Positions 1 through 60,969 of a stretch of 64,000 nt of DNA are shown piece by piece. Source of the stretch: Squalus acanthias (lineage: Eukaryota); assembly GCA_030390025.1 (NCBI GenBank), contig CM059432.1, positions 48,920,001-48,984,000 of the forward strand. Reading direction: 5' to 3'. How positions within the stretch are numbered: position 1 is the stretch's first letter; each line of letters begins with the position of its first letter. The translations under genes were made by a program, and so were the position numbers. Under the pieces are notes generated by a model, which was given only the letters and a program-made list of their open reading frames with translations, made no database searches and was not told where the DNA came from.

Positions 1-3000
1 GAGGGAGGGGGCAGTGATCGGGAGAGGGAGGGGGCAGTGATCAGGAGAGGGAGAGGCAGTGATCGGGAGACGGAGGAGCAGTGATCGGGAGAAGGAAAGG
101 GCAGTGATCGGGAGAGGGATGGGCAGTGATCAGGAAAGGGTGAGGCAGTGATCGGGAGAAGGAGTGGGCATGTGATCGGGAGAGGAAGGGGCAGTGATCG
201 GGAGAGGGAGGGGCGGTGATCGGGAGAGGAAGGTGACAGTGATCGGGAGAGGGTGGGGGCAGTGATCAGGAGAGGGAGGGTCAGTGATCGGGAGAGGGAG
301 GGGGCAGTGATCGGGAGAGGGAGGGGGCAGTGATTGGGAGATGGAGGGGGCAATGATCGGGAGAGGGAGGGGGCAGTGATCGGGAGAGGGAGGGGGCAGT
401 GATTGGGAGATGGAGGGGCAGTGATCGGGATAGTGAGGGTGCAGTGATCGGGAGAGGGAGGGGGCAGAGATCGGGAGAAGGAGAGGCAGTGATTGGGAGA
501 GGGAGAGGCAGTGATCGGGAGAGGGAGGGGGCAGTGATCTGGAGAGGGAGGGGGCAGAGATCGGGAGAAGGGGGCAGTGATCGGGAGAGGGAGGGGGCAG
601 TGATCGGGAGAGGGAGGGGGCAGAGATCGGGAGAAGGGGGCAGTGATCGGGAGAGGGAGGGGGCAGTGATCGGGAGAGGGAGGGGGCAGTGATCGGGAGA
701 AGGAGGGGGCAGTGATCGGGAGAGGGAGAGGCAGTGATCGGGAGAGGGAGGGGGCAGTGATCGGGAGAGGGAGGGGCGGTTATCGGGAGAGGGAGGGGCG
801 GTGATCGGGAGAGGGAGGGGACAATGATCGGGAGAGGGAGGGAGCAGTGACCGGGAGTGGGAGGGAGCAGTGATCGGGAGGGGGGGCAGGATCGGGAGAG
901 GGAGGGGGCAGTGATCGGGATAGGGAGGGGTCAGTGATCGGGAGGGGGGGCAGGGATCGGGAGAGGGAGGGGGCAGTGATCGGGAGAGGGAGGGGGCAGA
1001 GATCGGGAGGAGGGGGCAGAGATCGGGAGAGGGAGGGGCAGTGATCGGGAGAGGGAGGGGCAGTGATCGGGAGAGGGAGGGGCGGTGATCGGGAGAGGGA
1101 GGGGCGGTGATCGGGAGAGGGAGGGGACAGTGATCGGGAGAGGGCGGGGCAGTGATCGGAGAGGGAGGGGCAATGATCGGGAGAGGAATTGGCAGTAATC
1201 GGGAGAGGGAGGGGCAGTGATTGGGATAGTGAGGGTGCAGTGATCGGGAGAGGGAGGGGGCAGTTCTCAGGAGAGGGAGGGGGCAGTGATCGGGAGTGGG
1301 AGGGGGCTGTGATCGGGAGAGGGAGGGGGCAGTGATCGGGAGAGGGAGGGGGCAGTGATCGGGAGAGGGAGGGGACAGTGATCGGGATAGGGAGGGTGCA
1401 GTGATCAGGATAGTGAGGGTGCAGTGATCGGGAGAGGGAGGGGGCAGTGATCGGGAGAGGGAGGGGGCAGAGATCGGGAGAAGGAGGGGGCAGTGATCGG
1501 GAGAGGGAGAGGCAGTGATCGGGAGAGGGAGGGGGCAGGGATCGGGAGAGGGAGGGGACAGTGATCGGGAGAGGGAGGGGACAGTGATCGGGAGAGGGAG
1601 GGGACAGTGATCGGGAGAGGGCGGGGCAGTGATCGGAGAGGGAGGGGCAATGATCGGGAGAGGAATTGGCAGTAATCGGGAGAGGGAGAGGCAGTGATCG
1701 GGAGAGGGAGGGGCGGTGATTGGGAGAGGGAGGGGACAGTGATCGGGAGAGGGCGGGGCAGTGATCAGAGAGGGAGGGGCAATGATCGGGAGAGGAATTG
1801 GCAGTAATCGGGAGAGGGAGAGGCAGTGATCGGGAGAGGGAGGGGCAGTGATCGGGATAGGGAAGGGGCAGTGATCGGGATAGGGAAGGGGCAGTGATCG
1901 GGAGAGGGAGGGGCAGTGATCGGGATAGTGAGGGTGCAGTGATCGGGAGACGGAGGAGCAGTGATCGGGAGAAGGAGGGGGCAGTGATCAGGAGAGGGAT
2001 GGGCAGTGATCAGGAAAGGGAGAGGCAGTGATCGGGAGAAGGAGTGGGCAGTGATCGGGAGAGGAAGGGGCAGTGATCGGGAGAGGGAGGGGCGGTGATC
2101 GGGAGAGGGAGGTGACAGTGATCGGGAGAGGGTGGGGGCAGTGATCAGGAGAGGGAGGGTCAGTGATCGGGAGAGGGAGGGGGCAGTGATCGGGAGAGGG
2201 ATGGGGCAGTGATCGGGAGAGGGAGGGGGCAGTGATCAGGAGAGGGAGAGGCAGTGATCGGGAGACGGAGGAGCAGTGATCGGGAGAAGGAAAGGGCAGT
2301 GATCGGGAGAGGGATGGGCAGTGATCAGGAAAGGGAGAGGCAGTGATCGGGAGGAGTGGGCAGTGATCGGGAGAGGAAGGGGCAGTGATCGGGAGAGGGA
2401 GGGGGCAGTGATCGGGAGAGGGAGAGGGCAGTGATCGGGAGAGGGAGGGGGCAGTGATCGGGAGAGGGAGGGGGCAGTGATTGGGAGATGGAGGGGCAGT
2501 GATCGGGATAGTGAGGGTGCAGTGATCGGGAGAGGGAGGGGGCAGAGATCGGGAGAAGGAGAGGCAGTGATCGGGAGAGGGAGAGGCAGTGATCGGGAGA
2601 GGGAGGGGGCAGTGATCTGGAGAGGGAGGGGGCAGAGATCGGGAGAAGGGGGCAGTGATCGGGAGAGGGAGGGGGCAGTGATCGGGAGAGGGAGGGGGCA
2701 GAGATCGGGAGAGGGAGGGGGCAGAGATCGGGAGAAGGGGGCAGTGATCGGGAGAGGGAGGGGGCAGTGATCGGGAGAGGGAGGGGGCAGTGATCGGGAG
2801 AGGGAGGGGGCAGAGATCGGGAGAAGGAGGGGGCAGTGATCGGGAGAGGGAGAGGCAGTGATCGGGAGAGGGAGGGGGCAGTGATCGGGAGAGGGAGGGG
2901 CGGTTATCGGGAGAGGGAGGGGCGGTGATCGGGAGAGGGAGGGGACAGTGATCGGGAGAGGGCGGGGCAGTGATCGGAGAGGGAGGGGCAATGATCGGGA

Positions 3001-4933
3001 GAGGAATTGGCAGTAATCGGGAGAGGGAGAGGCAGTGATCGGGAGAGGGAGGGGCAGTGATCGGGATAGGGAAGGGGCAGTGATCGGGATAGGGAAGGGG
3101 CAGTGATCGGGAGAGGGAGAGGCAGTGATCGGGATAGTGAGGGTGCAGTGATCGGGAGAGGGAGGGGGCAGTTCACAGGAGAGGGAGGGGGCAGTGATCG
3201 GGAGACGGAGGAGCAGTGATCGGGAGAAGGAAAGGGCAGTGATCGGGAGAGGGATGGGCAGTGATCAGGAGAGGGAGAGGCAATGATCGGGAGAAGGAGT
3301 GGGCAGTGATCGGGAGAGGAAGGGGCAGTGATCGGGAGAGGGGGTGGCGGTGATCGGGAGAGGGAGGTGACAGTGATCGGGAGAGGGTGGGGGCAGTGAT
3401 CAGGAGAGGGAGGGTCAGTGATCGGGAGAAGGAGTGGGCAGTGATCGGGAGAGGAAGGGGCAGTGATCGGGAGAGGGAGGGGGCAGTGATCAGGAGAGGG
3501 AGTGTCAGTGATCAGGAGAGGGAAGTGGCAATAATCGGGAGAAGGATGGGGCATTGAACGGGAGAGGGAGGGGTAGTGAACGGGAGAGGGATGGGGCAGT
3601 GATCGGGAGAGGGAGGGGTCAGTGATCGGGAGAGGGAGGGGTCAGTGATCGGGAGAGGGAGGGGTCAGTGATCGGGAGAGGGAGGGGGCAGTGATCGGGA
3701 GAGGGAGGGGGCCGTGATCGGGAGAGGGAGGGGTCAGTGATCGGGAGAGGGAGGGGTCAGTGATCGGGAGAGGGAGGGGCAGTGATCGGGATAGTGAGGG
3801 TGCAGTGATCGGGAGAGGGAGGGGGCAGTTCTCAGGAGAGGGAGGGGGCAGTGATCGGGAGTGGGAGGGGGCTGTGTTCAGGAGGGGGAGAGGCAGTGAT
3901 CAGGAGAGGGAGGGGGCAGAGATCGGGAGAAGGAGGGGGCAGTGATCGGGAGAGGGAGAGGCAGTGATCGGTAAAGGAAGGGGGCAGTGATCGGGAGATG
4001 GAGTGGCAGTGATCGGGATAGGGAGGGTGCAGTGATCTGGAGGGGGAGGGGCAGAGATCGGGAGGAGGGGTCAGTGATCGGGAGAGGGAGGGGCAGTGAT
4101 CGGGAGAGGGAGGGGCGGTGATCGTGAGAGGGAGGGGACAGTGATCGGGAGAGGGCGGGGCAGTGATCGGAGAGGGAGGGGCAATGTTCGGGAGAGGAAT
4201 TGGCAGTAATCGGGAGAGGGAGAGGCAGTGATCGGGAGAGGGAGGGGGCAGTGATCAGGAGAGGGAGGGGGCAGCGATCGGGAGAGGGAGGGGGCAGTGA
4301 TCATGGGAGGGACGGGCAGTGATCGGGAGAGTGAGGGGGCAGTGATCGGGAGAGTGAGGGGGCAGTGATCGGGAGAGGGAGGGGCAGTGATCAGGAGGGA
4401 GGGGCAGTGATCGGGAGAGGGAGGGGGCAGTGATCGGGAGACGGAGGGGCAGTGATCGGGAGTGGGAGGGGGCTGTGTTCAGGAGGGGGAGAGGCAGTGA
4501 TCGGGAGAGGGAGGGGGCAGTGATCGGGAGAGGGAGCAGGCAGTGATCGGGAGAGGGAGGGGGCAGAGATCGGGAGAAGGAGGGGGCAGTGATCGGGAGA
4601 GGGAGGGGGCAGTGATTGGGAGAGGGAGGGGCGGTGATCGGGAGAGGGAGGGGCGGTGATCGGGAGAGGGAGGGAGCAGTGATCGGGAGAGGGCGGGGCA
4701 GTGATCGGAGAGTGAGGGGCAATGATCGGGAGAGGAATTGGCAGTAATCGGGAGAGGGAGACGCAGTGATCGAGAGAGGGAGGGGGCAGTGATCGGGAGA
4801 GGGAGGGGCATTGATCGGGAGAGGGAGGGGCAGTGATCGGGATAGTGAGGGTGCAGTGATCGGGAGAGGGAGGGGGCAGTGATCGTGACAGGGAGGGGGC
4901 AGTGATCAGGAGAGGGAGGGTGCAGTGATCGGG
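1..4933. repeat. G-rich minisatellite, 22-23 bp unit (GTGATCGGGAGAGGGAGGGG(G)CA), running off the left edge
   Basis: Continuous tandem copies with variant units (GAGATC, GTAATC, GGATAGTGAGGGT). All Gly/Arg- and Pro-rich ORFs at 399-5138 are translations of it. Confidence 0.98.
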
Positions 4934-8207: not shown

Positions 8208-11200
8208 AAAAAAATTCGTTCCTGGGGTGTGGGTGTCACTGGCAAGGCCAGCATTTATTGCCCATCCTTAATTGCCCTTGAGAAAGTGGTGCTGAGCCGC
8301 CTTCTTGAACCGCTGCAGTCCGTGCGGTGAGGTGTTGTTAGGGAGGGAGCTCCGGGATTTTGACCCAGCGACGATGAAGGAACAGCGATATAATTCCAAG
8401 TCAGGATGGTGTGTGACTTGGAGGTGATGGTGTTCCCATGTGCCTGCTGCCCTTGTCCTTCTAGATGGTAGAGGTCACAGGTTTGGGAGGTGCTGCCGAA
8501 GAAGCCTTGGCGAGTTGCTGCAGTGCATCTTGTAGATGCTACACGCAGCAACCACGGTACGCCGGTGGTGGAGGGAGTGAATGTTTAAGGTGGTGGATGG
8601 GGTGCCAATCAAGCGGGCTGCTTTGACCTGGATTGTGTCGAGCTTCTTGAATGTTGTTGAAGCTGCACTCATCCAGGCAAGTGGAGAGTATTCCATCACA
8701 CTCCTGACTTGTGCTTTGTAGATGGTGGAAATGCTTTGGGGAGTCAGGAGGTGAGCCACTCACCACAGAATACCTAGCCTCTGACCTGCTCTTGTAGCCA
8801 CAGTATTTATGTGGCTGGTCCAGTTAAGTTTCTGGTCAATGCTGACCCCCAGGATGTTGATGGTGGGGGATTTGGCGATGGTAATGCGGTTGAATGTCAA
8901 CGGGCGATGGTTAGACCCTCTCTTGTTGAAGATAGTCATTGCCTGGCATTTGTGTGGCGCGAATGTTACTTGCCAATTATCAGAGCCAGCCTGAATGTCG
9001 TCCAGGTCTTGCTGCATGCGGGCATGGACTTCTTCATTATCTGAGGATTTGTGAATGGAACTTAACACTGTGCAATCATCAGCGAATATCCCCACTTCTG
9101 ACCTTATGATGGAGGGAAGGTCATCGATGAAGAACTGAAAATGGTTGGGCCTAGGACACTGCCCTGAGGAACTCCTGCAGTGATATCCTGGGGCTGAGAT
9201 GATTGGCCTCCAACAACCACAACCATCTTCCTTTGTGCCAGGTATGACTCCAGCCAGTGGAGAGTTTTCCCCCTGATTCCCATTGACTTCTGTTTTACTC
9301 GGGCTCCTTGGTGCCACTCTCACCTCACCTCTGGAATTCAGCTCTTTTATCTATGTTTGGACCAAGGCTGTAATGAGGTCTGGAGCCAAGTGTTCCTAGT
9401 GGAACCCAAACTGGCCATTGGTGAGCTTGTTAATGGTAAGTAAGTGCCACTTGATAGCACTGTCGACGACGCCGTCCATCACTTTGCTGATGATTGAGAG
9501 TAGATTGATGGGGCGGTAATTGGCCAGATTGGATTTGTCCTGCTTTTTCTGGACAGGACATACCTGGGCAGTTTTCCACATTGTCGGGTAGATGACAGTA
9601 TTGTAGCTGTACTGGAACAGCTTGACTAGAAGTGTGGCTAGTTCTGGAGCACAAGTCTTCAGCACAACAGCCGGGATGTTGTCGGGGCCCATAGATCTTG
9701 CTGCATCCAGTGTGCTCAGCCGTTTCTTGATATCACGTGGAGTGAATCGAATTGGCTGAAGACTGGCTTCTGTGATGGTGGGGACTGCAGGAGGAGGCCG
9801 AGATGGATCATCCACTTGGCACTTCTGGCTGAGGTTGGTTGCAAACACTTCAGCCTTGTCTTTTACACTCGTGTGCTGGGCTCTGTCATCACTGAGGATA
9901 GGGATATTCATGGAGCCCCCTCCTCCCAGTAGTTGTTTACTGGTCCACCACCATTCACGAATGGATGTGGCAGGACTGCAGAGCTTTAATCTAATTCATT
10001 GGTTGTGGAAATCGCTTAGCTCTGTATATAGCATGCTGCTTCTGCTGTTTAGCATGCATGTAGTCCTGTGTTTCATCTTCCCCAGATTGGTAGCTCACTT
10101 TTAGGTACACCTAGTGCTACTCCTGGCATGCTCTTCTACACTCCTCATTGAACCAGGGTTGGTCCCCTGGCTTGATGGTAATGGTAGAGTGAGGGATATG
10201 CCGGGCCAGGAGGTTACAGATTGTGGTGGAATACAATTCTGCTGCTGCTGATGGCCCACAGTGCCTCATGGATGCCCAGTTTTGAGCTGCTAGATCTGTT
10301 CTAAATCTATCGCATTTAGCACGGTGGTAGTGCCACACAATACGATGGAGGGTGTCCTCAATGTGAAGACAGAACTTCGTCTCCACAATGACTGTGCGGT
10401 GGTCACTGCTACCAATACTGTCATGAGCAGATGCATCTGCGACAGGTAGATTGGTGAGGATGAGGTCAAGTAGGTTTTTCCCTCGTGTTGGTTCTCTCAC
10501 CACCTGCCGCAGGCCCAGTCTGGCAGCTATGTCCTTCAGGACTCAGCCAGCTCGGTCAGTAGTGGTGCTACTGAGCCACTCTTGGTGATGGACATTGAAG
10601 TCTCCCACCCAGAGTACATTCTGTGTCCTTGCTACTCTCAGTGCTTCTTCCAAGTGGTGTTCAACATGGAGTACTGATTTATCAGCTTATGGAAGGCAGT
10701 AGATGGTAATCAGCAGGAGGTTTGTTAGAAATTAGGGTATCCAAAATATATGGGGTTATGCGAATGAAATTGTGACGTGAATAAGACTGTGTTTACATGA
10801 CTGTATTAGAACTTGAGACAAAAAGTCTCTTGAGACTAGTATTAGAATAAGTAGATAGATGCTTAGAATCTGCTTGTGTTTTGGTTCCCTGCGGATGTCA
10901 TAACATTCTGCAGCGTGACTATCATATATGACCTTGTTTCCAGGCTAGCTATCTGCTGTTTGTAAGTTAGGATTTCAACTTTGTTTATGTATCTCTAGTT
11001 TGACCAACTAAGGCTCAACGCCTATGTTTCTTCTATCATTACTAATAACCATGTTATAATGCTAAGGTAGGAACTGGAGTTCGCTTAATAAAACTGCTTG
11101 CGAAGCTTTGTAGAAGTTAATTAAGTATAAGGACATAGAATTGAAGGAATTTATGGGGGCTAATATATCATCTCAGGGTAGAATAGTCTGTTAGTTTAAG

Positions 11201-12580
11201 GGGAGATAGTTTGGATAACAACAGGCTGAGCAGACAGCTCTAACATGGGCCCCTGATTAAGAGGGTACAAGGCTGGCTTTATCAGGGAGGATAGGGACAA
11301 GAGAGATAAGACGAATTCCAATGGAGGAACGTTCAGGATGTATAAACAGGAAAGACAAATTGGAAAAAAAGAACATGAGACCCCTTTAGGCGAGGGCTTT
11401 CATCTGAAAGTTAAGACAAAGAACTCGACATGCCATTGGGCATTGGGATAGGTTTAGGAAGAGCCCTTACAGGTTAAATAGGTCCTGTCAATATTTTACA
11501 TCAGGCCACCCCTAAAAAAAGAGAAAGACCTGAAAAGGCCTTAGCACAAACGGTGGAGGGGAGAGCCATACAAGAGTGGGGCTGGTCTAACACTCTTCTG
11601 GGAGTGGACCCATTCTTGGAGGTTCTAGGCGAGAGGAAAAAGGCCATAAGCTGGAGAACTGTTCACGCACACCAGCTGTCTGTCCGATCAGGACCGGTAC
11701 CAACTGCTTGTCATGGTCGTGTGTTTTTGCTGTATAACTAATGTGTTATATTCCATCTTAAACTCTGATTAAACACAATATTCTCACCATATTGGTTTGC
11801 AGTCGATTCTAATTATCTGAAAGACCAGAGATAATCTAATCTCTACAGGTTTCCTTGCCCATGCTTGACCTGACGTCATGAGACTTCATGGGGTCCGGAG
11901 TCAATGTTGAGGACTCGCAGGGCCACTCCCTCCCGACTGTATACCACTGTGCCGCCACCCCTGGTGGGTCTGTCCTGCCGGTGGGACAGGACATAACCAG
12001 GGATGGTGATGGAGGAGTCTGGGACGTTGACTGAAAGGTATGATTCTGTGAGTATGACTGTCAGGCTGTTGCTTGACTAGTCTGTGGGACAACTCTCTTA
12101 ATTTTGACACAAGTCCCCTGATGTTAGTGAGGAGGACTTTGCAGGATCGACTGGGCTGGATGTGCCTTTGTCGTGACTTAAGCCAGTGCCTAGTTTGATG
12201 CTGGGTGGTCCGTCCTGTTTTATTCTTATTATTGTTTTTCGTAGCAGTTTGGTACAACTGAGTGGCTTGCTAGGCCATTTCAGAGGGCAGTTAAGAGTTA
12301 ACCACATTGCTGTGGGTCTGGAGTCACATGTAGGCCAGACCAGATAAGGGTGGCAGATTTCCTTCCCTAAAGGACATTAATGAACCAGATGGGGTTTTAT
12401 GACAATCCGGTAGTTTCATGGTCACAAAGACTGACACTAGCTTTTTATTCCAGATTTATTTAATTAACTGAATTTAAAGTCCCCAGCTGCCATGATGGGA
12501 TTTCAACTCATGTCTCTGGATCATTAGTCCAGGCCTCTGAATGACTAGTGCAGTAACATAACCACTATGCTACCGTACCC
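8208..12580 (-). mobile_element. Family A LINE (CR1 superclade, Zenon-like), full length, degenerate single EN-RT ORF with tRNA-like 5' head; interrupted by a solo LTR
   Basis: Minus-strand ORF pieces TNIRGL, LLDLILTN...SSDH, GPDNIP...NYRPI, FADD, IYKAQVRSVMEY. A box at 12562-12572, B-like box at 12498-12509, A-rich tail at about 8208. Confidence 0.93.
10723..11847. mobile_element. Solo LTR (1125 bp) of an ERV or LTR retrotransposon
   Basis: Starts TGTTAGAA and ends CTCTACA, flanked by the 4-bp duplication GGTT (10719-10722 and 11848-11851). Removing it restores the LINE sequence seen uninterrupted at about 19206-19232. ATTAAA near 11768. Confidence 0.85.
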
Positions 12581-18092: not shown

Positions 18093-18174
18093 AATTTTTA
18101 CATTGTTTTATTCTAATTATAAATGAATTGTATTTTTTTTTGTAAGTGTATATTTGATCAAGTGTATATTTGAT

Positions 18175-18497
18175 CGGATGAGATGTAAAACCAAGGCCCC
18201 GTCTGCTCTCTCAGGTGGATGTAAAAGATCCCAAGTCACTATTTCGAAGAAGAGCAGGGGAGTTATCCCTGGTGTCTTGGCCAATATTTCTCCCTCAATC
18301 AACATCACTAAAGACAGATTATCTGGTCATTATCACATTGCTGTTTGTGGGAGCTTGCTGTGTGCAAATTGGCTGCCACGTTTCCCACATTACAACAGTG
18401 ACTACACTTCAAAAAGTACTTCATTGGCTGTAAAGCGCTTTGAGACGTCCGGTGGTCGTGAAAGGTGCTATATAAATGCAAGTCTTTCTTTCTTTCT
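18175..18497 (+). mobile_element. Deu-domain SINE (SacSINE1/AmnSINE-like), 5'-truncated
   Basis: CGGATGAGATGTAAAACC...CAGGTGGATGTAAAAGATCCC...GAAAGGTGCTATATAAATGCAAGTC(TTTC)n; closely similar to 43410-43733. Confidence 0.85.
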
Positions 18498-18518
18498 TAC
18501 TTACTTTAATTTGTATTT

Positions 18519-21500
18519 GGTAGCATAGTGGTAATGTCCCTGGACTAATGATGTGAGTTCAAATCCCACCACGGCAAATGGGGAATTTAAATTTAGTTAA
18601 TTAAATAAATCTGGAATAAAAAGCTAGTATCAGTAATGGTAACCATGAAACTATCGGATTGTTGTAAAAACCCATCTGGTTCACTAATGTCCTTTAGGGA
18701 AGGAAATATGCCGTTCGTACCTGGTCTGGCCGATATGTGACTCCAGACCCAAAGCAATGTGGCTGACTCTTAACTGCCCTCTGAAATGGCCTAGCAAGTC
18801 ACTCAGTTGTAACAAACTGCTACGAAACACAATAATAAGAATGAAACCGGACGGACCACCCAGCATCGACCTCGGCACCGGCTACTGACATGGCAATGGC
18901 ACACCCAGCCCAGTCAACCCTGCAAAGTCCTCCTCACCAACATCTGGGGATTTGTGCCAAAATTGGGAGAGCTGTCCCACAGGCTAGTCAAGCAACAGCC
19001 TGACAAAGTCATACTCACAGAATCATACCTTTCAGCTAATGTTCCAAACTCCTCCATCACCATCCCTGGGTTTGTCCTGTCCCACAGGCAGGATAGACCC
19101 ACCAGGGGTGGTGGCACAGTGGTATACAGTCAGGAAAGAGTGGCCCTGGGAGTCCTCAACATTGAATCCAGACTCCATGAAGTCTCATGGCTTCAAGTCA
19201 AGCATGGGCAAGGAAACCTCCTAGTGATTACCACCTACCGCCCTCCCTCAGCTGATGAATCAGTACACCTCCATGTTTAGCACCACTTGGAAGAAGCACT
19301 GAGAGTAGCAAGGGCACAGAATGTACTCTGGGTGGGGGACTTCAATGTCCATCACCAAGAGTGGCTCGGTAGCACCACTACTGACCGAGCTGGCCGAGAC
19401 CTGAAGGACATAGCTGCCAGTCTAGGCCTGCGACAGGTGGTGAGAGAACCAACACGAGAGAAAAACCTACTTGACCTCGTCCTCACCAATCTACCTGTCG
19501 CAGATGCATCTGTCCATGACAGTGTTGGTAGCAGTGACCACCGCACAGTCATTGTGGAGATGAAGTCCTGTCTTCACACTGAGGACACCCTCCATCGTGT
19601 TGTGTGGCACTACCACCGTGCTAAATGGGATAAATTCAGAACTGATCTAGCAGCTCAAAACTGGGCATCCATGAGGCGCTGTGGGCCATCAGCAGCAGCA
19701 GAATTGTATTCCACCACAATCTGTAACCTCATGGCCCGGCATATCCCTCACTCTACCATTACCATCAAGCCAGGGGACCAACCCTGGTTCAAATAAAGAG
19801 TGTAGTAGAGCATGCCAGGAGCAGCACCAGGCGTACCTAAAAATAAGGTGCCAACCTGGGGAAGCTGCAACACAGGACGACATGCATGCTAAAAAGCGGA
19901 AGCAGCATGCTATAGACAGGGCTAAGCGATCCCATAATCAATGGATCAGATCAAAGCTCTGCAGTCCTGCCACATCCAGTCGTGAATGGTGGTGGACCAT
20001 TAAACAACTAACGGGAGGAGGAGACTCCATGAATATCCCCATCCTCAATGATGGTGGAGCCCAGCATGTGAGTGCAAAGGACAAGGCTGAAGCGTTTGCA
20101 ACCATCTTCAGCCAGAAGTGCCGAGTAGATGATCCATATTGGCCTACTCCTGAGGTCCCCACCATTACAGAAGCCAGTCTTCAGCCAACTCCACGTGATA
20201 TCAAGAAACAGCTGAGCGCACTAGATACAGCAAAAGCTATGGGCCCCGACAACATCCCGGCTGTCATGCTGAAGACTTGTGCTCCAGAACTAGCCGCGCC
20301 TCTAGCCAAGCTGTTCCAGTACAGCTACAACACTGGCATCTATCCAACAATGTGGAAAACTGCCCAGGTATGTCCTGTCCACAAAATGCAGGACAAATCC
20401 AATCAGGCCAATTACCGCCCCATCAGTCTACTCTCAATCATCAGCAAAGTGATGGAAGGTTTCATCAAAACTGCTATCAAGCGGCACTTACTCACCAATA
20501 AACTAATTTGTCAGGGGGATGGGAAAAAGGGCTGTAGTCCACGAGCCAGTGGTGAGTGTAGGGAGGTACTGAGGAGGGTATCAAGGTCGCAGGAATGTAC
20601 CGGCAGACAGGAAGATGGCTTGAAGTGTGTCTACTTCAATGCAAGGAGCATCCGGAATAAGGTAGGAGAACTTGGAGCGTGGATTGGTACTTGGGACTAC
20701 GATGTGGTGGCCATTACGGAGACATGGTTAGAACAGGGACAAGAATGGTTGTTGGAAGTTCCGGGGTATAGATGTTTCAGTAAGAGTAGGGAAGTTGGTA
20801 AGAAAGGTGGAGGAGTAGCATTGTTAATCAAGGATAGTTTAACAGCGGCAGAAAAGCAGTTCGAGGGGGATCTGCCGTCTGAGGTAATATGGGCTGAAGT
20901 TAGAAATAGGAAAGGAGCGGTCACGTTGTTAGGAGTTTTCTACAGGCCCCCAAATAGTAATAAAGATGTGGAGGAAGAAATTGCAAAGCAGATTATGAAT
21001 AGGTGTGGAGGTCACAGAGTAGTTGTCATGGGTGACTTCAACTTTCCAAATATTGATTGGAACCTTTATAGGTCAAACAGTTCGGATGGGATAGTTTTTG
21101 CACAGTGTGTGCAGGAGGGTTTCCTGACACAATATGTGGATAGGCCGACAAGAGCTGGGGCCACGTTGGATTTGGTACTGGGTAATGAACCGGGCCAAGT
21201 GTTTGATTTGTATGTGGGAGAGCACTTTGGAGATAGTGACCACAATTCGGTAACTTTCACTATTGCAATGGAGAGGGATAGGGCCATACAGCAGGGCAGG
21301 GTTTATAATTGGGGGAGGGGTAATTATGATGCGATTAGGCAAGAATTAGGGAGTATAAGATGGGAACAGAAACTATCAGGGAAAGGCACAAACGAAAAGT
21401 GGAGCTTTTTCATGGAGCAATTACTGCGTGTCCTTGATAGGTATGTCCCTGTCAGGCAGGGAGGAAATGGCCGAGTGAGAGAACCATGGTTCACAAAAGA

Positions 21501-24500
21501 GGTTGAATGTCTAGTCAAGAGGAAAAAGGAAGCGTATGTAAGGATGAGAAAACAAGGTTCAGTTGGGTCGATTGAGGGGTACAAGGTAGCAAGGAATGAG
21601 CTAAAAAAAGAGCTTAGGAGAGCTAGGAGGGGGCATGAGAAGTCCTTGGCGGGTCGGATCAAGAAAAACCCCAAGGCTTTTTACTCTTATGTGAGAAATA
21701 AAAGAATGACCAGGGTGAGGGTAGGGCCGGTCAAGGACAGTAGTGGGAACTTGTGCATGGAGTCAGAAGAGATAGGAGAGGTGATGAATGAATACTTTTC
21801 GTCAGTGTTCACCGAGGAGAGGGGCCATGTTCTTGAGGATGAGAGTGTGATAAAGGTGGATAGGCTGGAGGTGGTAGATGTTCTGAGGGAAGATGTTTTA
21901 GCAATTTTGAAGAACCTGAGGGTCGATAAGTCCCCTGGGCCAGATGGGATATATCCTAGGATTCTTTGGGAGGCAAGGGAGGAGATTGCAGAGCCTCTGG
22001 CTTTGATCTTTGGGTCCTCACTGTCCACGGGGATGGTGCCAGAGGACTGGAGAGTGGCGAATGTTGTTCCTCTCTTCAAGAAAGGAAATAGGAATGACCC
22101 TGGTAATTATAGGCCGGTTAGTCTTACTTCGGTGGTTGGTAAGATAATGGAAAAGGTCCTGAGGGATAGGATTTATGACCATTTGGAAAGGGGCAACTTC
22201 TCAGGGATAGTCAACACGGATTCGTGAAGGGTAAGTCTTGCCTAACAAATTTGATTGAATTCTTTGAGGAGGTAACTAAGTGTGTAGATGAAGGTAGAGC
22301 AGTTGATGTCGTATACATGGATTTTAGTAAGGCGTTTGATAAGGTTCCCCATGGTCGTCTCATGAAGAAAGTAAGGAGTTGTGGGATAGAGGGAAATTTG
22401 GCCGAATGGATAAGTAACTGGCTATCTCATAGAAGGCAGAGGGTGGTGGTGGATGGAACATTTTCGGACTGGAGACCAGTTACCAGCGGTGTGCCACAGG
22501 GGTCGGTGCTGGGTCCTCTGCTGTTTGTGATTTTTATCAATGACTTGGAGGAGGGGACTGAAGGGTGGATCAGTAAATTTGCTGATGACACCAAGATTGG
22601 TGGAGTAGTGGATGAGGTGGAGGGCAGTTGTAGGCTGCAAAGAGACATTGATAGGATGCAGAGCTGGGCCGAAAAATGGCAGATGGAATTTAACCCTGAT
22701 AAGTGCGAGGTGATTCATTTTGGTAGGGCAAATTTGAATAAGGATTACAGGGTCAACGGCAGGGTTCTGAGGAACGTGGAGGAGCAGAGGGATCTGGGGG
22801 TTCATATCCACAGATCTCTGAAGGTTGCCACTCAAGTGGATAGAGCAGTAAAGAAGGCCTATGGTGTGTTGGCGTTTATTAACAGAGGGTTTGAGTTTAA
22901 GAACCATGAGGTTATGCTGCAACTGTACAGGACCTTGGTGAGACCACATTTGGAATATTGTGTGCAGTTCTGGTCACCTCACTATAGGAAGGACGTGGAA
23001 GCATTGGAAAGAGTGCAAAGGAGATTTACCAGGATGCTGCCTGGTTTGGGGGGAGGTCTTATGAGGAAAGATTGAGGGAGTTGGGGCTTTTCTCTTTAGA
23101 GCGGAGGAGGATGAGAGGCGACTTAATAGAGGTTTATAAGATGATGAGGGGGATAGATAGAGTGGATGTTCAGAGACTATTTCCTCGGGTAGAGGCAGCT
23201 GTTACAAGGGGGCATAACTATAAGGTGCATGGGGGGAGATATAGAAGGGATGTCCGAGGTAGATTCTTTACTCAGAGAGTGGTTGGGGTGTGGAATGGAC
23301 TGCCTGCTGTGATAGTGGAGTCGGACACTTTAGGAACTTTCAAGCGGTTATTGGATAAGCACATGGAGCACACCAGAGTGATAGGGAGTGTGATAGCTTG
23401 ATCTTGGTCTCGGACAATGCTCGGCACAACATCGAGGGCCGAAGGGCCTGTACTGTGCTGTACTGTTCTATATGTATCTATGTAACCTGCTCACTGATGC
23501 CCAGTTTGGGTTCCGCCAAGACCACTTGGCTCCCGACCTCATTACAACCTTGGTCCAAACATGGACAAAGGAACTGAATTCCGGAGGTGAGGTGAGAGTG
23601 ACTGCCCTTGACATCAAGGCAGCATTTGACCGAGTGTGGCATCAAGGATCCCCAGTAAAACTGAAGTCAATGGGAATCGGGGGGAAAACTCTCCACTGGC
23701 TGGAGTCATATCTAGCACAAAGGAAGATGGTTGTGGCGGTTGAAGGTCAATCATCACAGCCCCAGGACATCGCTGCAGGAGTTCCTCAGGGCAGTGTCCT
23801 AGGCCCAACCATCTTCAGCTGCTTCATCAAAGACCTTCCCTCCAATATAAGGTTAGAAATGGGGATGTTCGCTGATGACTGCACAGTGTTCAGTGCCATT
23901 CACAACTCCTCAGATAATGAAACAGTCCATGCCCGCATGCAACAAGACCTGGACGACGTTCAGGCTTGGGCTGATAAGTGGTTGGTAACATTCGTGCCAC
24001 AGAAGTGCCAGGCAATGACTATCTCCAACAAGCGAGAGTCTAACCACCGCCTCTTGACATTCAACGGCATTACCATCGCCGAATCCCCCCACCATCAACA
24101 TTCTGTGGGTTACCGTTGACCAGAAACTTAACTGGACTAGCAACATAAATACTGTGGCAACAAGAGCAGGTCAGAGGCTAGGTATTCTGCAGCGAGTGTC
24201 TCACCTCCTGACCCCCCAAAGCCTTTCCACCATCTACAAGGTACAAGTAAGGAGTGTGATGGAATACTCTCCACTTGCCTGGATGAGTGCAGCTCCAACA
24301 ACACTCAAGAAGGTCGACACCATCCAGGACAAAGCAGCCCGCTTGATTGGCACCCCATCCACCACCTTAAACATTCACTTCCTCCACCACGGCGTACCAT
24401 GGCTGCAGTGTGTACCATCTACAAGATGCACTGCAGCAACTCGCCAAGGCTTCTTCGGCAGTACCTCTCAAACCCGCGACCTCTACCACCTAGAAGGACA

Positions 24501-24766
24501 AGGGCAGCAGACGCATGGGAACACCACCACCTCCAAGTTCCCCTCCAAGTCACACACCATCCTGACTTAGAAGTATATCGCCGATTCTTCATCGTCGCTG
24601 GGTCAAAATCCTGGAACTCCCTACCTAACAGCACTGTGGGAGTACCTTCACCACATGGACTGCAGTGGTTCAAGAAAGTGGCTCACCACCACCTTCTCAA
24701 GGGCAATTGGGGATGGGCAATAAATGCTGGCCTTGCCAGTGATGCCCACATCCCATAAACAAATAA
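18519..24766 (+). mobile_element. Family A LINE, essentially full length (about 3.26 kb once the nested CR1 is removed); a few stops and frameshifts
   Basis: A box at 18521-18531 and B box at 18555-18566. EN motifs TNIWG, ILTESYL, TYRPP, VGDFN, LDLVL, SDH. RT motifs ALDIKAAFDRV, GVPQGSVLGP, FADD. C-terminus HHHLLKGN. Confidence 0.95.
20502..23482 (+). mobile_element. CR1 LINE with complete ORF2 (EN+RT, two frameshifts) and 3' UTR, nested in family A; ORF1 absent
   Basis: YFNARSIRNK, AITETWL, FYRPPNS, MGDFN, SDH, YMDFSKAFDKV, GVPQGSVLGP, KFADDTK, LVRPHLEY. Tail GTTCTATATGTATCTATG. The host sequence CCAATAA/TAACCTGCTC resumes on both sides (TAA duplicated). Confidence 0.96.
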
Positions 24767-26695
24767 TATATTTTTTTAAATGGCTGGGTGTTTCTGCAAC
24801 ACTTACCATTTACAAGCACGTGGCAAAAATTGCATTTGAGCAATTCAGGGTAAAAGCTTTGAATCCCCAGTGAGTACAGACATTGATGCTACGTTAAAGT
24901 CTACTTATGCCAACATAATTTTGCCTGTCGAAACTACTGGATATAATACACAGGATTTGAATAAAAAATATATTTATGTAATAAAATAGACAAAAATAAT
25001 CATTAATCAACAACAAAATGTTGAGTACCAGAAATTCTGTAAATGAATTTAAATGTGGTCTTAATGGAGCCTGCTTGATGAAGCAGAGATGCACAACACT
25101 AATTAGCAATTTTATAGTTTATTAGGTAATTTCACTGTTTATTGCCCTATAGCACATAAAAAGAACTAAGGAGGAGGAAGAAAATTTTCATCTGTCCAAC
25201 TATAATGACTCTTCCAAATGTTCATTGTGACATCAGGTTAATTGAAAAAAAGGAGTTAGATTTGAGACTATATTAGTAATGGCACACTCTTGTGGAAAGA
25301 GCTTTACCATTTGCAAACTATAGCAAGTAAACACAAAGCACAATCCTCTACCAACAGAAAAACATCTGCTTTAACATGGTGTAAACATTTTCTTAGATCT
25401 TCAATACCAACATTAGCATTTCTGCAGTGGAAGCAGCACACAATTAAATGCGCTAATGGCAATTTTACCAGGTGTCCATGCCATCAAGAAATTGTCACAC
25501 TTTTCTTGACTAATCACATTTCTAAGTAATTATCACTCGAATGAGCATGCTGACATGAGCTGCAAGAATTCAGATATTATGATTTAGTTTTCAAATTGGG
25601 AATTGGGGAAAAAAAACTACTGAAAACACACCGTTAAATCTTCAATAGACCGTCTACATGTAGGATTTGCTGCTCACGATACACATCCCTTCATAGAAAA
25701 ATACATTGTCTTTTAAAGAGCCAAATATTCCGTTATCCAGTTATACATCTGATACATGAATGAGAATAGGAGCATTAAAACCTTTCTTAAACAACAAGTG
25801 CTTTAGAAGAAAGGAGTTTTATTACATTATGCAAATAATGACAAGGGCAAGTATGAACAGAAAATCATTCATGTTCCATGATTTTGCTCAAAATAACCTT
25901 TGTTACACATCACAATGATAAATAGACTTACTGACAACTGTAATTGTTGCTACTTCAACCTGAACTAAAAGATGCACCATAGCAACTTCATACAAGGTTG
26001 CATAACGAGGACAAAGATGTCAGCAGTAATTAAAGCCCTTAAAGAAAATTAAAAATGCTAAATTACAAACACAGCTAACATACACAAGCTTGAAGGAAAT
26101 GGAAGATCTGGCATGATTCTAAATGCCTTCCTTTAACTAGTAGGTCTATTGCCTTTGGTCAATAAATTGTATTCCCTCGTTTTTGTTAAAATACATGATT
26201 ACTGACTAGCTGTGAATACCAAGAACGCAAATGAGTTTTGAAGCACATGGGTTTTTTTGTTAAGAGGTTATTTCCACGATGTTTTAGTAGTTCTTGACAA
26301 TCATTTATGATTATGGTATTTTTTGTACTATAAGTTATACCTTGTTTTTTTTTTTGCTACTACCTGTCCAAAGAAGAATATCTGGTGCTTGACAGTACAG
26401 CAGTGTGTGTGTGCATGGATATAAATCTGAGGCTACACAATGCTCAAATAAAATATTTATTCTATACCTTTTTGTTAGTAATGAATAAAGCATTTCTCAT
26501 CAGCCTTATTCATTAGTAATAAAATTATTATTGAAAACTAGTTTTACAACTGATTGCATCCACCAAATGTTGCATCAAACTAACTCGACTGCTGACTGTA
26601 ACTCATGCAGCACATGATTGAGGTAATATATAACAAGTTGTTAATTTGCTGCTTACGCAGCACTCATATCCAACAATAACTATCTGTTCATGCAT

Positions 26696-33466: not shown

Positions 33467-34425
33467 GCTGTGCTTCATCAATGACCTTCCCTCCAACATA
33501 AGGTCAAAAATGAGGATGTTCGCTGATGACTGCACAGTGTTCAGCGCCATTCACAACTCCTCAGATAATGAAGCAATCCACGCCCACATGCAACAAGACC
33601 TGGATGACAATCAGGCTTGGGCTGATAAGTGGCAGGTAACATTCGCGCCAGTGAAGTGCCAGGCAATGACTATCTCCAACAAGTGAGAGTCTAACCAACT
33701 CCCCTTGACATTCAATGACATTACCATCGCCGAATCCCCCACCATCAACATCCTGGGGGTCACCATTGACCACAAACTTAACTGGACCAGCCACATAAAT
33801 ACTGTGGCAACAAGAGCAGGTCAGAGGTTAGGTATTCTGCGGTGAGTGTCTCACCTCCTGACTCCCCAAAGCCTATCCACCATCTACAAGGCACAAGTAA
33901 GGAGTGTGATGGAATACTCTCCACTTGCCTGGAGGAGTGCAGCTCCAACAACACTCAAGAAGCTCGACACCATCCAGGACAAAGCAGCCCGTTTGATTGG
34001 CACCCCATCTACCAGCTTAAACATTAATTCCCTCCACCACCGGCGTACCATGGCTGCAGTGTGTACCATCTACAAGATGCACTGCAGCAACTCGCCAAGG
34101 CTTCTTCGGCAGCACCTCCCAAACCCGCGACCTCTTCCAATTAGAAGGACAAGGGCAGCAGGCGCATGGGAACACCACCACCTCCAAGTTCCCCTCCAAG
34201 TCACATACCATCCTGACTTAGAAGTATATCGCCGATCCTTCATCGTCGCTGGGTCAAAATCCTGGAAGTCCCTACCTAACAGCACTGTGGGAGTATCTTC
34301 ACCACACGGACTGCAGCGATTCAAGAAGGTGGCTCACCACCACCTTCTCAAGGGCAATTAGGGATGGGCAATAAATGCTGGACTTGCCGGCGACGCCCAG
34401 ATCCCATAAGCAAATTTAAAAAAAA
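33467..34425 (+). mobile_element. Family A LINE, 5'-truncated
   Basis: FINDLP...FADDCTVF through HHHLLKGN*, followed by the 3' stem-loop and A tail. Confidence 0.95.
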
Positions 34426-43312: not shown

Positions 43313-43733
43313 TCAGAAGGTCGAGGGTTCAAGTCCCACTCCAAAGACTTGAACATTGACTCTCCAGTGCAGTACTGAGGGAGTGCAGCACTGTCGGAGG
43401 TGCCGTCTTTCGGATGAGACGTTAAACCATGGCCTCTCAGGTGGAGGTAAAAGATCCTATGGCACTATTTTGAAGTAGAGCAGGGGAGTTATTCCCGGTG
43501 TCCTAACCAATATTTATCCCTCAATCAACATCACTAAAAAAACAGATTATCTGGTCATTATCACATTGCTGTTTGTGGGAGCTTGCTGTGCACAAATTGG
43601 CTGCCACATTTCCGAAATTACAACAGTGACTGCACTTCAAAAAAAAGTACTTAATTGGCTGTAAAGCGCTTTGGGACGTCTGGTGGTCGTGAAAGGCACT
43701 ATATAAATGCAAGTCTTTCTAACTTCTTTCTTT
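43313..43733 (+). mobile_element. Deu-domain SINE (SacSINE1/AmnSINE-like), nearly full length
   Basis: B box GGTTCAAGTCCC, Deu core CAGTGCAGTACTGAGGGAGTGCAGCACTGTCGGAGGTGCCGTCTTTCGGATGAGACGTTAAACC, and an L2-like tail. Confidence 0.88.
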
Positions 43734-56497: not shown

Positions 56498-58275
56498 AGG
56501 AAATCATGGGGAAAACGCACTACTGGCTGGAGTCATACCTAGCACAAAGGAAGATGGCTGTGGTGGTTAAAGGCCAATCATCACAGCCCCAGGACATCGC
56601 TGCAGGAATTCCTCAGGGCAGTGTCCTAGGCCCAACCACCTTCAGCTGCTTCATCATGACCTTCCCTCCAACATAAGGTCAGAAATGGGGATGTTCGCTG
56701 ATGACTGCACAGTGTTCAGTGCCATTCGCAACTCCTCAGATAATGAAGCAGTCCATGCCCGCATGCAACAAGACCTGGACGACGTTCAGGCTTGGGCTGA
56801 TAAGTGGCAGGTAACATTCGTGCCACAGAAGTGCCAGGCAATGACTATCTCCAATAAGCGAGAGTCTAGCTATCTCCCCTTGACGTTCAACGACATTACC
56901 ATTGCCAAATCCCCTATCAACAACATCCTGGGGGTGACCATTGACCAGAAACTTAACTGGACCAGCCACATAAATACTGTGGTTACATGAGCAGGTCAGA
57001 GGCTAGGAATTCTGCAGCGAGTGTCTCACCTCCTGGCTCCCCAAAGCCTCTCCACCATCTACAAGGCACAAGTCAGGAGTGTGATGGGATACTCCCCAGT
57101 TGCCTGGGAGGGTGCAGCTGTAACATCAATCAAAGAGCTCAACACCATCCAAGACAAAGCAGTCCGTTTTGATTGTCAGCACATCCACCACTTTAAATAT
57201 TTAGTGGGAAAAATTCAGTTGGTTGCGCCTCCCGTTAGCGCCTTAAGAGGGCGCTAATGGGGCGCAAATCATCTAGCGCCCGGGCGCGGCCATGTTTGCG
57301 CCGCTCGCAAAATTAACTAGACATTTTGCGGCGGCGCTAAACACTACCGCCACGATCTCCTGCGCCGGCAGATCGTGACATCAGTCGAGTGCGCAACGCC
57401 CCAGTATCGCCCCGGAGCGGATATTGAGTGGCGCCCCCTGCCTTACTGCCTGCCGCTAGCAACGACAGGTTGAGGGGAGCGTTTTGCAGTCAGGAAGGGA
57501 CTGGGGGAGCGCTATTTAAAGGCGACCGCTTCCTGCCTTTTATTGTTGGTGACATTTTTGAACCACGCTTTCTGAGAGAGAGAGAGAGAGAGAGAGAGAC
57601 TTCTGGAGAGATTCAACGCTGTGTGAGGGAGTTTTGGGTACTGAGCAGCACTTTGCAGGTTCATTTTGATTTGCCTTTCCTTGTATCGATTTAGAAGAGA
57701 CTGTGGGGGCTGCACTCGGAGCTCTTTCCCTGGTACTCTCCATTGTTCTTTCCAGCAGATTTGATGTACAGCTCTTTCCAGGCCGAGATTCAAGGCTGCA
57801 ATGAGCAGGATGTGGATGGAAAGCAAGATCAACCCTCCCCTTTAAGAACTGGCCCATGCCATTGTGTGTGTGTTCCATTGCTGACTGACATCACATGAGC
57901 TTCGCCAGCGCTCTGAGGTAGCGCCTCGCTCCTCGGCCTTTGCGCCTTAAGACAGGTGTGAAGCGCCTGATTTAGCACTCCAATCACCTCCAGGGGCGAT
58001 AAAAGTCAAGTTTGCAGTCGGTGGCGATAATTAGCGCCAGGCGCTAATCTTTGCGCCCGGCCGATAATTGCGCCCCAAATGGGGCGACACTGAATTTCTC
58101 CCCCTTAGTCCCTGTGCCACCAGCATACCGTGGGGATAGTTTGTACAATTTACAGGATGCACTGCAGCAACTCGCCAAGGCTTCTTCGACAGCATCTCCT
58201 AAATCTCCACCACCTAGACGGACAAAGGCAGGAGGTGCATGGGAACACCATCAACTCCAAATTTCCCTCCATTCC
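56498..58275 (+). mobile_element. Family A LINE fragment interrupted by a Harbinger MITE
   Basis: WLESYLAQRK, GIPQGSVLGP, FADDCTVF, IYKAQVRSVM; resumes at 58108. Confidence 0.9.
57204..58104. mobile_element. PIF/Harbinger non-autonomous element, 901 bp
   Basis: TIRs GTGGGAAAAATTCAGT / ACTGAATTTCTCCCCC, TTA TSD (57201-57203 and 58105-58107), internal (GA)n. Confidence 0.9.
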
Positions 58276-58282
58276 TTCATTC

Positions 58283-58940
58283 TAATAAGAATGAAACCGG
58301 ATGGACCACCTGGCATCGACCTTGGCACTGGCTACGGACACGGCAATGGCACACCCAGTGAGTGTCTCACCTCCTGACTCCCCAAAGCCTTTCCACCATC
58401 TACAAGGCACAAGTAAGGAGTGCGATGGCATACTCTCCACTTGCCTGGATGAGTGCAGCTCCAACAACACTCAAGAAGCTCGACACCATCCAGGACAAAG
58501 CAGCCCGTTTGATTGGCACCCCATCCACCACCTTAAGCATTCACTTTCTCCACCACCGGCTTACCGTGGCTGCAGTGTGTACCATCTACAAAATGCACTG
58601 CAGCAACTCGCCAAGGCTTCTTCGGCAGAACCTCTCAAACCCACGACCTCTACCACCTAAAAGGACAAGGGCAGCAGATGCATGGAAACACCACCACCTC
58701 AACGTTCCCCTCCAAGTCACACACCATCCTGACTTAGAAGTATATCGCCGATCCTTCATCGTCGCTGGGTCAAAATCCTGGAACTCCCTACTTAACAGTA
58801 CTGTGGGAGTACCTTCACCACACGGACTGCAGCGGTTCAAGAAGGCGGCTCACCACCACCTTCTCAAGGGCAACTAGGGATGGGCAGTAAATGCTGGCCC
58901 TGCCAGTGACGTCCACATCTCATAAGCGAATTTAAAAAAA
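58283..58940 (+). mobile_element. Family A LINE internal-deletion derivative
   Basis: 5' segment (equivalent to 18833-18909) is joined at about 58358 to the 3' segment (equivalent to 24191 onward), ending in the stem-loop and A tail. Confidence 0.88.
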
Positions 58941-59543: not shown

Positions 59544-60969
59544 CCCTGGGGTTCAATGAGGAGTGTAGAAGAGCATGCCAGGAGCAACATCAGGCGTACC
59601 TAAAAATGAGGTGCCAACCTGGGGAAGCGGCAACACAGGACGACATGCATGCTAAACAGCGGAAACAGAATGCTATAAACAGAGCTAAGCGATCCCACAA
59701 TCAACGGATCACATCAAACGCTGCAGTCCTGCCACATCCAGTTGTGAATGGTGGTGGACAATTAAACAACCAAAGGGAGGAGGAGGTTCCATGAATATTC
59801 CCATCCTCAATGATGGTGGAGCCCAGCACGCGAGTGCAAAACAGAAGGCTGAAGCGTTTGCAACCATCTTCAACCAGAAGTGCCGAGTGGATGATCCATA
59901 CCAGCCTCCTCCTGAGGTCCCCACCAGCACAGAAGCCAGTCTTCAGCCAATTCGATTCACTCCACGTGATATCAAGAAAAGGCTGAGCGCACTGGATACA
60001 GCAAAGGCTATGGGCTCCGACAACATCCCGGCTGTTGTGCTGAAGACTTGTGCTCCAGGACTAGCCGCGCCTCTAGCCAAGCTGTTCCAGTACAGCTACA
60101 ACACTGGCATCTACCTGACAATGTGGAAAACTGCCCAGATATGTCCGTCCACAAAAAGCAGGACAAATCCAATCCGGCCAATTAACGCCCCATCAGTCTA
60201 CTCTCAATCATCAGCAAAGTAATGGAAGGTGTCATCGACAGTGCTATCAAGCAGCACTTACTCAGCAATAACCTGCTCACTGATGCTCAGTTTGGGTTCC
60301 GCCAGGACCACTCGGCTCCTGACCTCATTACAGCCTTGGTACAAACATGGACGAAAGAGCTGAATTCCAGAGGTGATGTGAGAGTGACTGCCCTTGACAT
60401 CAAGGCAGCATTTGACCGAATGTGGCATCAAGGAGCCCTAGTAAAATTGAAGTCAATGGGAATCAGGGGGAAAACTCCCCACTGGCTGGAATCATACCTA
60501 GCAGAAAGCACCGTCCAGAACAAAGCAGTCCGCTTGATTGGCACCCCATCTACCACCTTAAACATTCACTCCCTCCACCATTGGTGCACCGTGGCTGCAG
60601 TGTGTACCAGCTACAAGATGCACTGCAGCAATTCATAAATGCTTTTTCGACAGCACTTCCCAAACCCGCGACCTCTACCATCTGGAAGGACAAGAGCAGC
60701 AGGCACACGGGAACAGCATCACCTGCAAGTTCTCCTCTAAGTTACACTCCATCCTGGCTTGGAAATATATCGCCGTTCCTTCATTATCGCTGGGTCAAAA
60801 CCCTGGAACTCCCTCCCGATCAGCACTGTAGGAGTACCTTCACCACAAGGACTGCAGCAGTTCAAGAAGGCGGCTCACCACCACCTTCTCAAGGGCAATT
60901 AGGGATCGACAATAAATAAATGCTGGCCTTGCCAGTGACGCCCACATCCCAGGAACAAATAAAAAAAAA
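59544..60969 (+). mobile_element. Family A LINE, 5'-truncated with an internal deletion at about 60508
   Basis: MNIPILNDGG...ALDIKAAFDRM...WLESYLA jumps directly to TVQNKAVRLIG; 3' stem-loop and A tail. Confidence 0.93.

Follow-up and report, generated by a model that had tools for sequence, protein, structure and literature searches.

The window analysed here, 64,000 nt of Squalus acanthias contig CM059432.1, carries from position 18519 onward a copy of a long interspersed nuclear element (LINE) that we call family A. As judged from its sequence, family A is the elasmobranch Zenon LINE, 3.3 kb long, with one open reading frame (ORF) for an apurinic endonuclease (APE) and a reverse transcriptase (RT). 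Products of RNA polymerase III (Pol III) are normally short non-coding RNAs. The Zenon of sharks and rays, however, is probably an autonomous LINE transcribed end to end by Pol III, and such whole-element transcription would explain a coding strand without T-rich terminator motifs. The anatomy, the fixed 5' end, the specific motif deficit, the purifying selection on the ORF and the existence of a short interspersed nuclear element (SINE) that corresponds to the element without the ORF are established. We give about even chances to the fuller picture in which Zenon would be a natural 3.3-kb Pol III mRNA, with terminators purged across the ORF and translation that needs neither cap nor AUG, retained in both sharks and rays and giving rise to a SINE through loss of the ORF.

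Identity and anatomy of the element

The assignment follows from the 5' end, which matches that of the published SquAca_Zenon-1 (3,314 nt; Stuart et al. 2026, PMC13343379). Published Zenon consensuses, taken from the supplement of that paper, were compared by eye over their initial 400 nt, and in this part SquAca_Zenon-1 agrees with family A. The elasmobranch Zenons described in passages of PMC13343379 (SquAca_Zenon-1, CarCar, RhiTyp, ScyCan and HypSab) are the same family, with a single APE-RT ORF, no ORF1 and a poly-A tail, the last being given there as a Zenon feature. Pfam matches in the family A ORF (PF14529, PF03372 and PF00078) are those of APE and RT, with no ORF1, and nearly all of 83 family A tails end in short A-rich runs and not in a microsatellite. 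The closest homologues of the protein are single-ORF proteins of ~950 amino acids (aa) at ~40% identity, one cluster of which is named from a sponge. In an RT tree of 39 rows, which held no named reference Zenon, family A stands with invertebrate single-ORF proteins, including two butterfly ones (SH-aLRT 99), and apart from RTE and vertebrate CR1, including three CR1 copies of Squalus acanthias.

Family A occupies 30,956 of 800,000 nt (~3.9%) in 80 evenly spaced 10-kb stretches of the Squalus acanthias genome (3.7 Gb), and in the same sample its 3' ends are ~7 times commoner than 5' parts of the ORF. A query with the 5' 782 nt of the window copy gave 10,174 first-look candidates, of which 40 were scored and 39 fetched. 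Family A copies diverge by ~3% from the column majority, and those that reach the point at which a CR1 element is inserted in the window copy are contiguous across it. A 66% match in L040 has no close family. Contigs bridging the family A leader and ORF were found in five of eight presumed RNA runs searched, representing five organisms. As a separate observation, an NCBI-predicted aldo-keto reductase of Heptranchias (P0009) includes ~220 aa from the family A ORF, probably as a false exon in the gene model.

All parts of the window copy lie on the + strand. The tRNA-like head (18519..18575) has an A box TAGCATAGTGG at 18521-18531 and a B box GTTCAAATC at 18557-18565, and lacks the first bases and a 29-nt inter-box piece that are present in other copies. 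It is followed by the leader, or 5' untranslated region (UTR), at 18576..18812, which is common to the LINE and the short SINE form; 18519-18812 holds 11 ATGs, an ATTAAA at 18600 and an AATAAA at 18615. The 5' part of the ORF (18813..20501; APE endonuclease and start of the RT) is broken here by stops and frameshifts and has no in-frame ATG ahead of the endonuclease. After a nested CR1-type LINE (20502..23482), a separate family that we used as a control, the 3' part of the ORF (23483..24710; RT core and C-terminus) is likewise broken. The 3' UTR and tail (24711..24777) contain AATAAA at 24719-24724, CCCACATCCC at 24745-24754 and an A/T tail with a final T7 at 24771-24777.

Full-length copies begin (AC)GGGAACGG, followed by the A box and, ~60 nt on, the B box. 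In a sample of 69 head matches that is biased toward 5'-complete copies, 35 start at positions 1-9, and both boxes are exactly kept in 19 of the 36 that start at position 12 or before. Twenty copies were picked by distant protein only; six reach the start of the head, seven end in the leader and seven end at or after the ORF start. No alternative shared leader was present among these 20, and with 0 such copies among them a head-less family A subfamily in Squalus acanthias was rejected. ARAGORN reported no tRNA in the family A head, and target-site duplications were found in 3 of 38 family A copies, a chance-like number.

In the initial parts of the published consensuses, A and B boxes stand at the start of the white shark, whale shark and catshark Zenons, and an A box with a degraded B box at that of the stingray. 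The inter-box sequence varies among the shark and ray consensuses and the boxes persist in five elasmobranch consensuses. No TTTT was seen over the same 400 nt in the three sharks and the stingray. Two hagfish Zenons and that of the coelacanth show no such head and have runs of four or more Ts (T4+) in these 400 nt, their 5' ends being partly of low confidence. None of 28 long relatives for which upstream DNA was available had the A and B box pair.

As a side observation, the head includes a pair of short segments that are alike and hairpin-like, CTGGGCTAGTAATCCA and CTGGACTAATGATCCA (L009:334-430), which resemble a duplicated anticodon arm, and the second shows, by eye, apparent compensatory changes in the compared parts of other shark consensuses. 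Relaxed ARAGORN matches in metagenome relatives were scattered.

Scarcity of Pol III terminator motifs

The original prediction held that the family A sense strand lacks TTTT over 18519-20501 and 23483-24766, and that this suggests selection on a 3-kb coding RNA for read-through by Pol III. The absence is exact, with 0 T4+ runs in 3,267 sense nt at 20.8% T, and AAAA is frequent as described (14 A4+ runs). TTT had been said to occur many times; we counted only 12 exact TTT, which is itself a deficit. The first T-run does lie just past the 3' end, as the T7 given above, and the nested CR1 is indeed rich in T4+, with 12 sense runs. A second near full-length family A copy (8208..12580, - strand, interrupted at ~10724-11846) has in its two family A parts the single sense TTTT attributed to it (AAAA at 9138-9141). 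The column-majority state of the family holds seven TTT and no T4. Across the 39 fetched copies and the window pieces there are 13 T4+ runs in 119,478 nt, against 563 A4+, 342 C4+ and 326 G4+, and no T4+ site in the body is common to more than two copies (in the tail, three); the 20 protein-picked copies add 11 in 62,094 nt, three of them in the tail. These scattered runs are new mutations or belong to the tail.

As a statistic, the absence of TTTT is less telling than had been supposed. The expectation of about five runs is borne out by base shuffles (4.8, P=0.007), but it drops to 2.2 in dinucleotide shuffles (P=0.094) and to 1.6-1.8 in synonymous-codon permutations of the ORF (P=0.11-0.16). 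For the ORF, 0 T4 against 0.5-1.9 expected under codon-preserving nulls is not significant, and only uniform codon use gives 5.1 and P=0.006. The choice between TTT and TTC for Phe, which had been proposed as a discriminator, fails as one since the ratios are similar in family A (3:15) and in a head-less RTE LINE (8:26). The proposed selection for read-through is still the best reading, by way of other tests, the TTTT statistic being too weak to carry it.

Human Pol III also terminates at interrupted T-runs (Orioli et al. 2011, PMC3141230), and we therefore counted a motif set made up of T4+ and the non-canonical Pol III terminator classes of that study. The column-majority state of family A contains one such motif, a weak T2CT2, in 3,290 nt, against 12.2 expected from base shuffles, none of 500 of which went as low, and 6.8 from dinucleotide shuffles (P=0.004). 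The A, C and G versions of the patterns are not depleted, and the antisense strand carries 40 T motifs.

The control LINE is the RTE of the same genome (38 copies, 4,025 columns, 18% T), whose 5' end gave no match to an A or B box and in which T4+ occurs only at columns 77, 139 and 3968. It has 16 motifs against 11.9 expected, and a TT observed-to-expected ratio of 0.99. Six CR1 clusters have observed-to-expected motif ratios of 1.10-1.30; in natural copies the ratio is 0.22 for family A and 1.14 for RTE. Among 80 metagenome relatives, the 66 with an ORF of at least 400 aa average 1.17 +/- 0.21 with a minimum of 0.84, most of them being T-richer; a T-matched relative of the same clade (L115) has 11 motifs against 7.8 expected. 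The search for the same depletion in head-less relatives gives a divided answer: RTE, too, has a T4-free stretch of 3,825 nt, but the wider motif deficit is absent from RTE, the CR1s and the 66 related ORFs. The TT ratio of family A, 0.71 (0.73 in the window copy), likewise lies below the minimum of 0.81 in the 66 relatives. Apart from its use here, this RTE (L241-L260, L201-L220) is a young 4.0-kb LINE with a 1,085-codon ORF, a 5' start of CAAGATGGC and strong 5' truncation.

Within the ORF the deficit is seen when protein and codon use are held constant (TT 74 against 90, P<0.002; TTT+ 5 against 11.3, P=0.005) and when CpG and TpA junction classes are kept as well (TT, P=0.0015; TTT+, P=0.015). 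Across nulls, TT is 74 against 84-91 and TTT 5 against 10-13, with P=0.0005-0.015. T is used at third positions in 8 of 59 cases before T and in 54 of 169 before C (P=0.004), a pattern that RTE does not show.

Reading frame, tail, derived SINE and further copies

One frame of family A is open over 973 majority codons. Selection was assessed from non-CpG single-base codon variants in 99 copies and fragments. Variants private to one copy have a ratio of nonsynonymous plus stop to synonymous changes of 1358/455 (omega ~1.18) with 73 stops, and the ratio is 23/25 for variants in 5-7 copies and 23/22 for those in at least eight copies (omega 0.36-0.41), without stops. The low omega and lack of stops among shared variants mean that the ORF was under purifying selection while the family spread. 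No stop-free copy was found among the best 47 protein matches, a result of a stricter first look that does not prove absence.

The first in-frame ATG of the ORF is at column 1188, past the endonuclease, and eight ATGs lie upstream of the ORF. Nearly all copies have two A(A/T)TAAA hexamers in the leader, at +100-150 (36 matches in 19 copies), against two matches in 14 whole copies of RTE. A short upstream ORF in another frame (18757-18843) was also noticed; it stops at the main ORF start in roughly one copy in two and continues past it in the others (variant in 26 of 58).

In family A tails, CCCACATCCC is followed by ~9 nt, then by a T-run of 1-10 and finally by an A-run; AATAAA lies ~45 nt upstream. 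In the 75 parsed tails the T-run is one T long in 37, two in 16, three in 13, four in four, five in three, and seven and ten in one each. T4+ within 40 nt is found in 20 of 83 tails, compared with 18.8% for random DNA.

The SINE, of 430-450 nt, is the first ~343 nt of family A joined to the last ~105 nt, without the ORF (examples are L261-L290, L152:2539-2906 and L160:9377-9779). Thirty copies have a mean pairwise identity of 82%, which gives the SINE a greater age than the LINE copies sampled, and the same joint is present in contigs of other organisms. The SINE may have arisen by deletion from the headed LINE, or a partner LINE may have captured the 5' half of a SINE. We found no description of this tRNA-headed SINE in the literature searched.

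Besides the two copies described, the window contains two 5'-truncated family A copies on the + strand, at 33471..34425 and, with an internal deletion, at 59550..60969, an internal fragment at 56508..57201 (- strand) and rearranged 3' fragments at 58109..58940 (+ strand). Just upstream of the main copy, and adjoining it, is a 5'-truncated Deu-domain SINE (SacSINE1-like, 18170-18500), with another at 43410-43732, and the 800-kb sample holds 57 matches to the Deu stretch. A published Deu alignment (PMC7245038) agrees by eye with 18170-18300. A leader derived from a Deu domain, or family A as the partner of SacSINE1, was considered and rejected, as this Deu-like segment has no similarity to family A. 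The window further includes a G-rich 23-nt tandem array of ~220 copies at 1-4933, with related units at 54405-55105, and a 56-nt tandem repeat at 62218-62454 (4.2 copies, 98% matches).

Mechanism, rival explanations and meaning

If Zenon is transcribed by Pol III, TFIIIC and TFIIIB would start the enzyme at the first G, ~8 nt ahead of the A box. A master copy that carried TTTT or a strong interrupted T-run would yield truncated RNA and be lost, for such RNA would lack the 3' end on which reverse transcription depends, and terminators would be selected against. Transcription would stop either within the tail, at its variable T-run, or beyond it in the flank, and polyadenylation might depend on AAUAAA as it does in mammalian T+ SINEs. 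The RNA, probably uncapped, would be translated cap-independently from a non-AUG start, given the eight upstream AUGs and a first in-frame AUG past the endonuclease. This non-AUG translation of a probably uncapped RNA, which we infer from the leader, is the weakest step. Through target-primed reverse transcription the APE-RT protein would then copy the RNA that encodes it, and it would act in trans to mobilise the 440-nt SINE.

Several observations weigh against transcription by Pol III or against selection on T-runs. The Rfam tRNA score of the window-copy head is 20.5 bits, under the gathering score of 29, two intact copies gave no Rfam tRNA match, and the leader folds no better than shuffles (z=0.02). 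The T7 past the 3' end was rejected as a built-in terminator, T4+ in tails being at background level and not family-wide. A TTTT near +110 in 9 of 30 SINE copies and a TCTTT in the Deu-type SINE suggest that Pol III units can tolerate terminator motifs, and the size of SINEs, 100-700 nt, has been ascribed to weak Pol III processivity (PMC10886601). The absence of TTTT alone is not significant across the stricter nulls (P 0.09-0.34), and RTE, head-less and matched in composition, is T4-free over 3,825 nt (columns 143 to 3967), which undercuts the statistic of the original prediction; RTE is also the one composition-matched full-length control LINE. The wider motif set was adopted after the TT and TTT deficit had been seen and is thus not a blind test. 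The ORF-only weighted motif score, for which part of the efficiency weights was assumed, gives P values from 0.005 to 0.14 according to the null used, and that of the RTE ORF is somewhat low as well (P=0.013-0.07). Phe makes up 1.85% of the family A protein, lower than in all 90 homologues, but its loss is merely z=-1.8 once GC-related amino-acid bias is allowed for. In a lineage test of little power, motif-making changes made up 4 of 35 shared variants and 36 of 658 private ones, and so were no scarcer in the shared set; all four shared ones belong to the weakest motif classes.

An unlikely alternative is that Zenon is transcribed by RNA polymerase II (Pol II), from its own promoter or by host read-through, that the head is kept for a role at the RNA level (translation, stability or RT binding), and that the T deficit is an avoidance of U-rich Pol II processing signals such as splice acceptors and downstream poly(A) elements. 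LINEs are generally regarded as Pol II units, and SINEs as short Pol III units incapable of encoding protein (PMC10886601, PMC5786205). The AATAAA ~45 nt ahead of the A tail and the ease of translating a capped RNA fit such transcription, and the paired stems apparently kept in the compared parts of published heads would fit an RNA role too. Against it, nearly all copies carry the two leader hexamers at +100-150, a cap would bring no advantage with eight upstream AUGs and no start AUG, head-less LINEs of the same genome show no such deficit, and copy starts are fixed at one place directly ahead of the A box. We hold it to be quite improbable that T-runs were under no selection at all and that the lack of TTTT in a T-poor, C-rich LINE is a matter of composition and chance, with the head a passenger from an old SINE-LINE fusion. 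An expected T4 count of merely 0.5-2.2 under stricter nulls, the longer T4-free stretch of RTE and the lack of a deficit in the lineage test speak for chance; it is opposed by the all-motif count of 1 against 6.8 with dinucleotides kept, confined to T and to the sense strand, by a TT ratio below that of every one of the 66 relatives, and by boxes that persist in five elasmobranch consensuses, as far as these were compared, despite changed sequence between them. Very improbable, finally, is a division of labour in which Pol III makes the template RNA, for which a T-free body is needed, and capped Pol II read-through RNAs of genic copies provide the protein in trans. No translation of uncapped RNA would then be required, and with copies at 3.9% of the 800 kb such read-through RNA would be common. 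Yet purifying selection along the master lineages (omega ~0.4, no shared stops) is easier to explain if every RNA relies on the protein that it encodes, and the missing AUG would stay unexplained.

The Zenon family is already catalogued, and the promoter and terminator reading is the new part. The word tRNA has 0 occurrences in the main text and supplement of Stuart et al. 2026 (PMC13343379), so the head is unmentioned there, as are, in passages of that paper, the terminator deficit and the derived SINE. The literature searched yielded no account of a coding LINE driven by Pol III; Repbase, Dfam and Weber et al. 2020 lay outside this search and may already note the head. Family A shares A and B boxes and their spacing at its 5' end with tRNA-derived SINEs (SINE2), its covariance-model match to tRNA being weak or absent, but these are short and non-coding (100-700 nt), whereas family A has 3.3 kb and a selected ORF of 973 codons, and only the 440-nt derivative fits among them. 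Its tail (AATAAA, variable T-run, A-run) resembles the truncated terminators of daughter copies of the mammalian T+ SINEs B2, Dip, Ves and Can (PMC8466645, PMC9599045), a likeness that is no proof.

Among other elements, RTE-1_DAn and elements related to it (Repbase; Kojima 2018, PMC5786205) are LINEs with a tRNA-like sequence as in family A, but of the RTE clade. The bipartite non-autonomous LINEs and Bov-tA-type SINEs of the same paper are short and join LINE 5' and 3' ends, like the 440-nt SINE; the bipartite elements in its passages come from RTE, Ingi, Vingi and R2 only and had a tRNA head added later, whereas in family A the coding LINE itself is headed. SacSINE1 and other Deu-SINEs and L2-2_CM (Luchetti 2017, PMC5499810) include tRNA-headed shark SINEs too, yet of a different family and with a different head. 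The Cassandra, Helenus and Ajax terminal-repeat retrotransposons in miniature (Kojima 2024, PMC10886601) are non-SINE retroelements with Pol III promoters, but non-coding long terminal repeat elements of at most 1.3 kb.

If Zenon is indeed transcribed by Pol III as proposed, it would mean that this polymerase can make kilobase coding RNAs in nature, from a LINE that makes up ~4% of a vertebrate genome, and that an unusual translation start is required. The boundary between LINEs and SINEs would be blurred, and sharks and rays would offer a new, direct route for the birth of a SINE.

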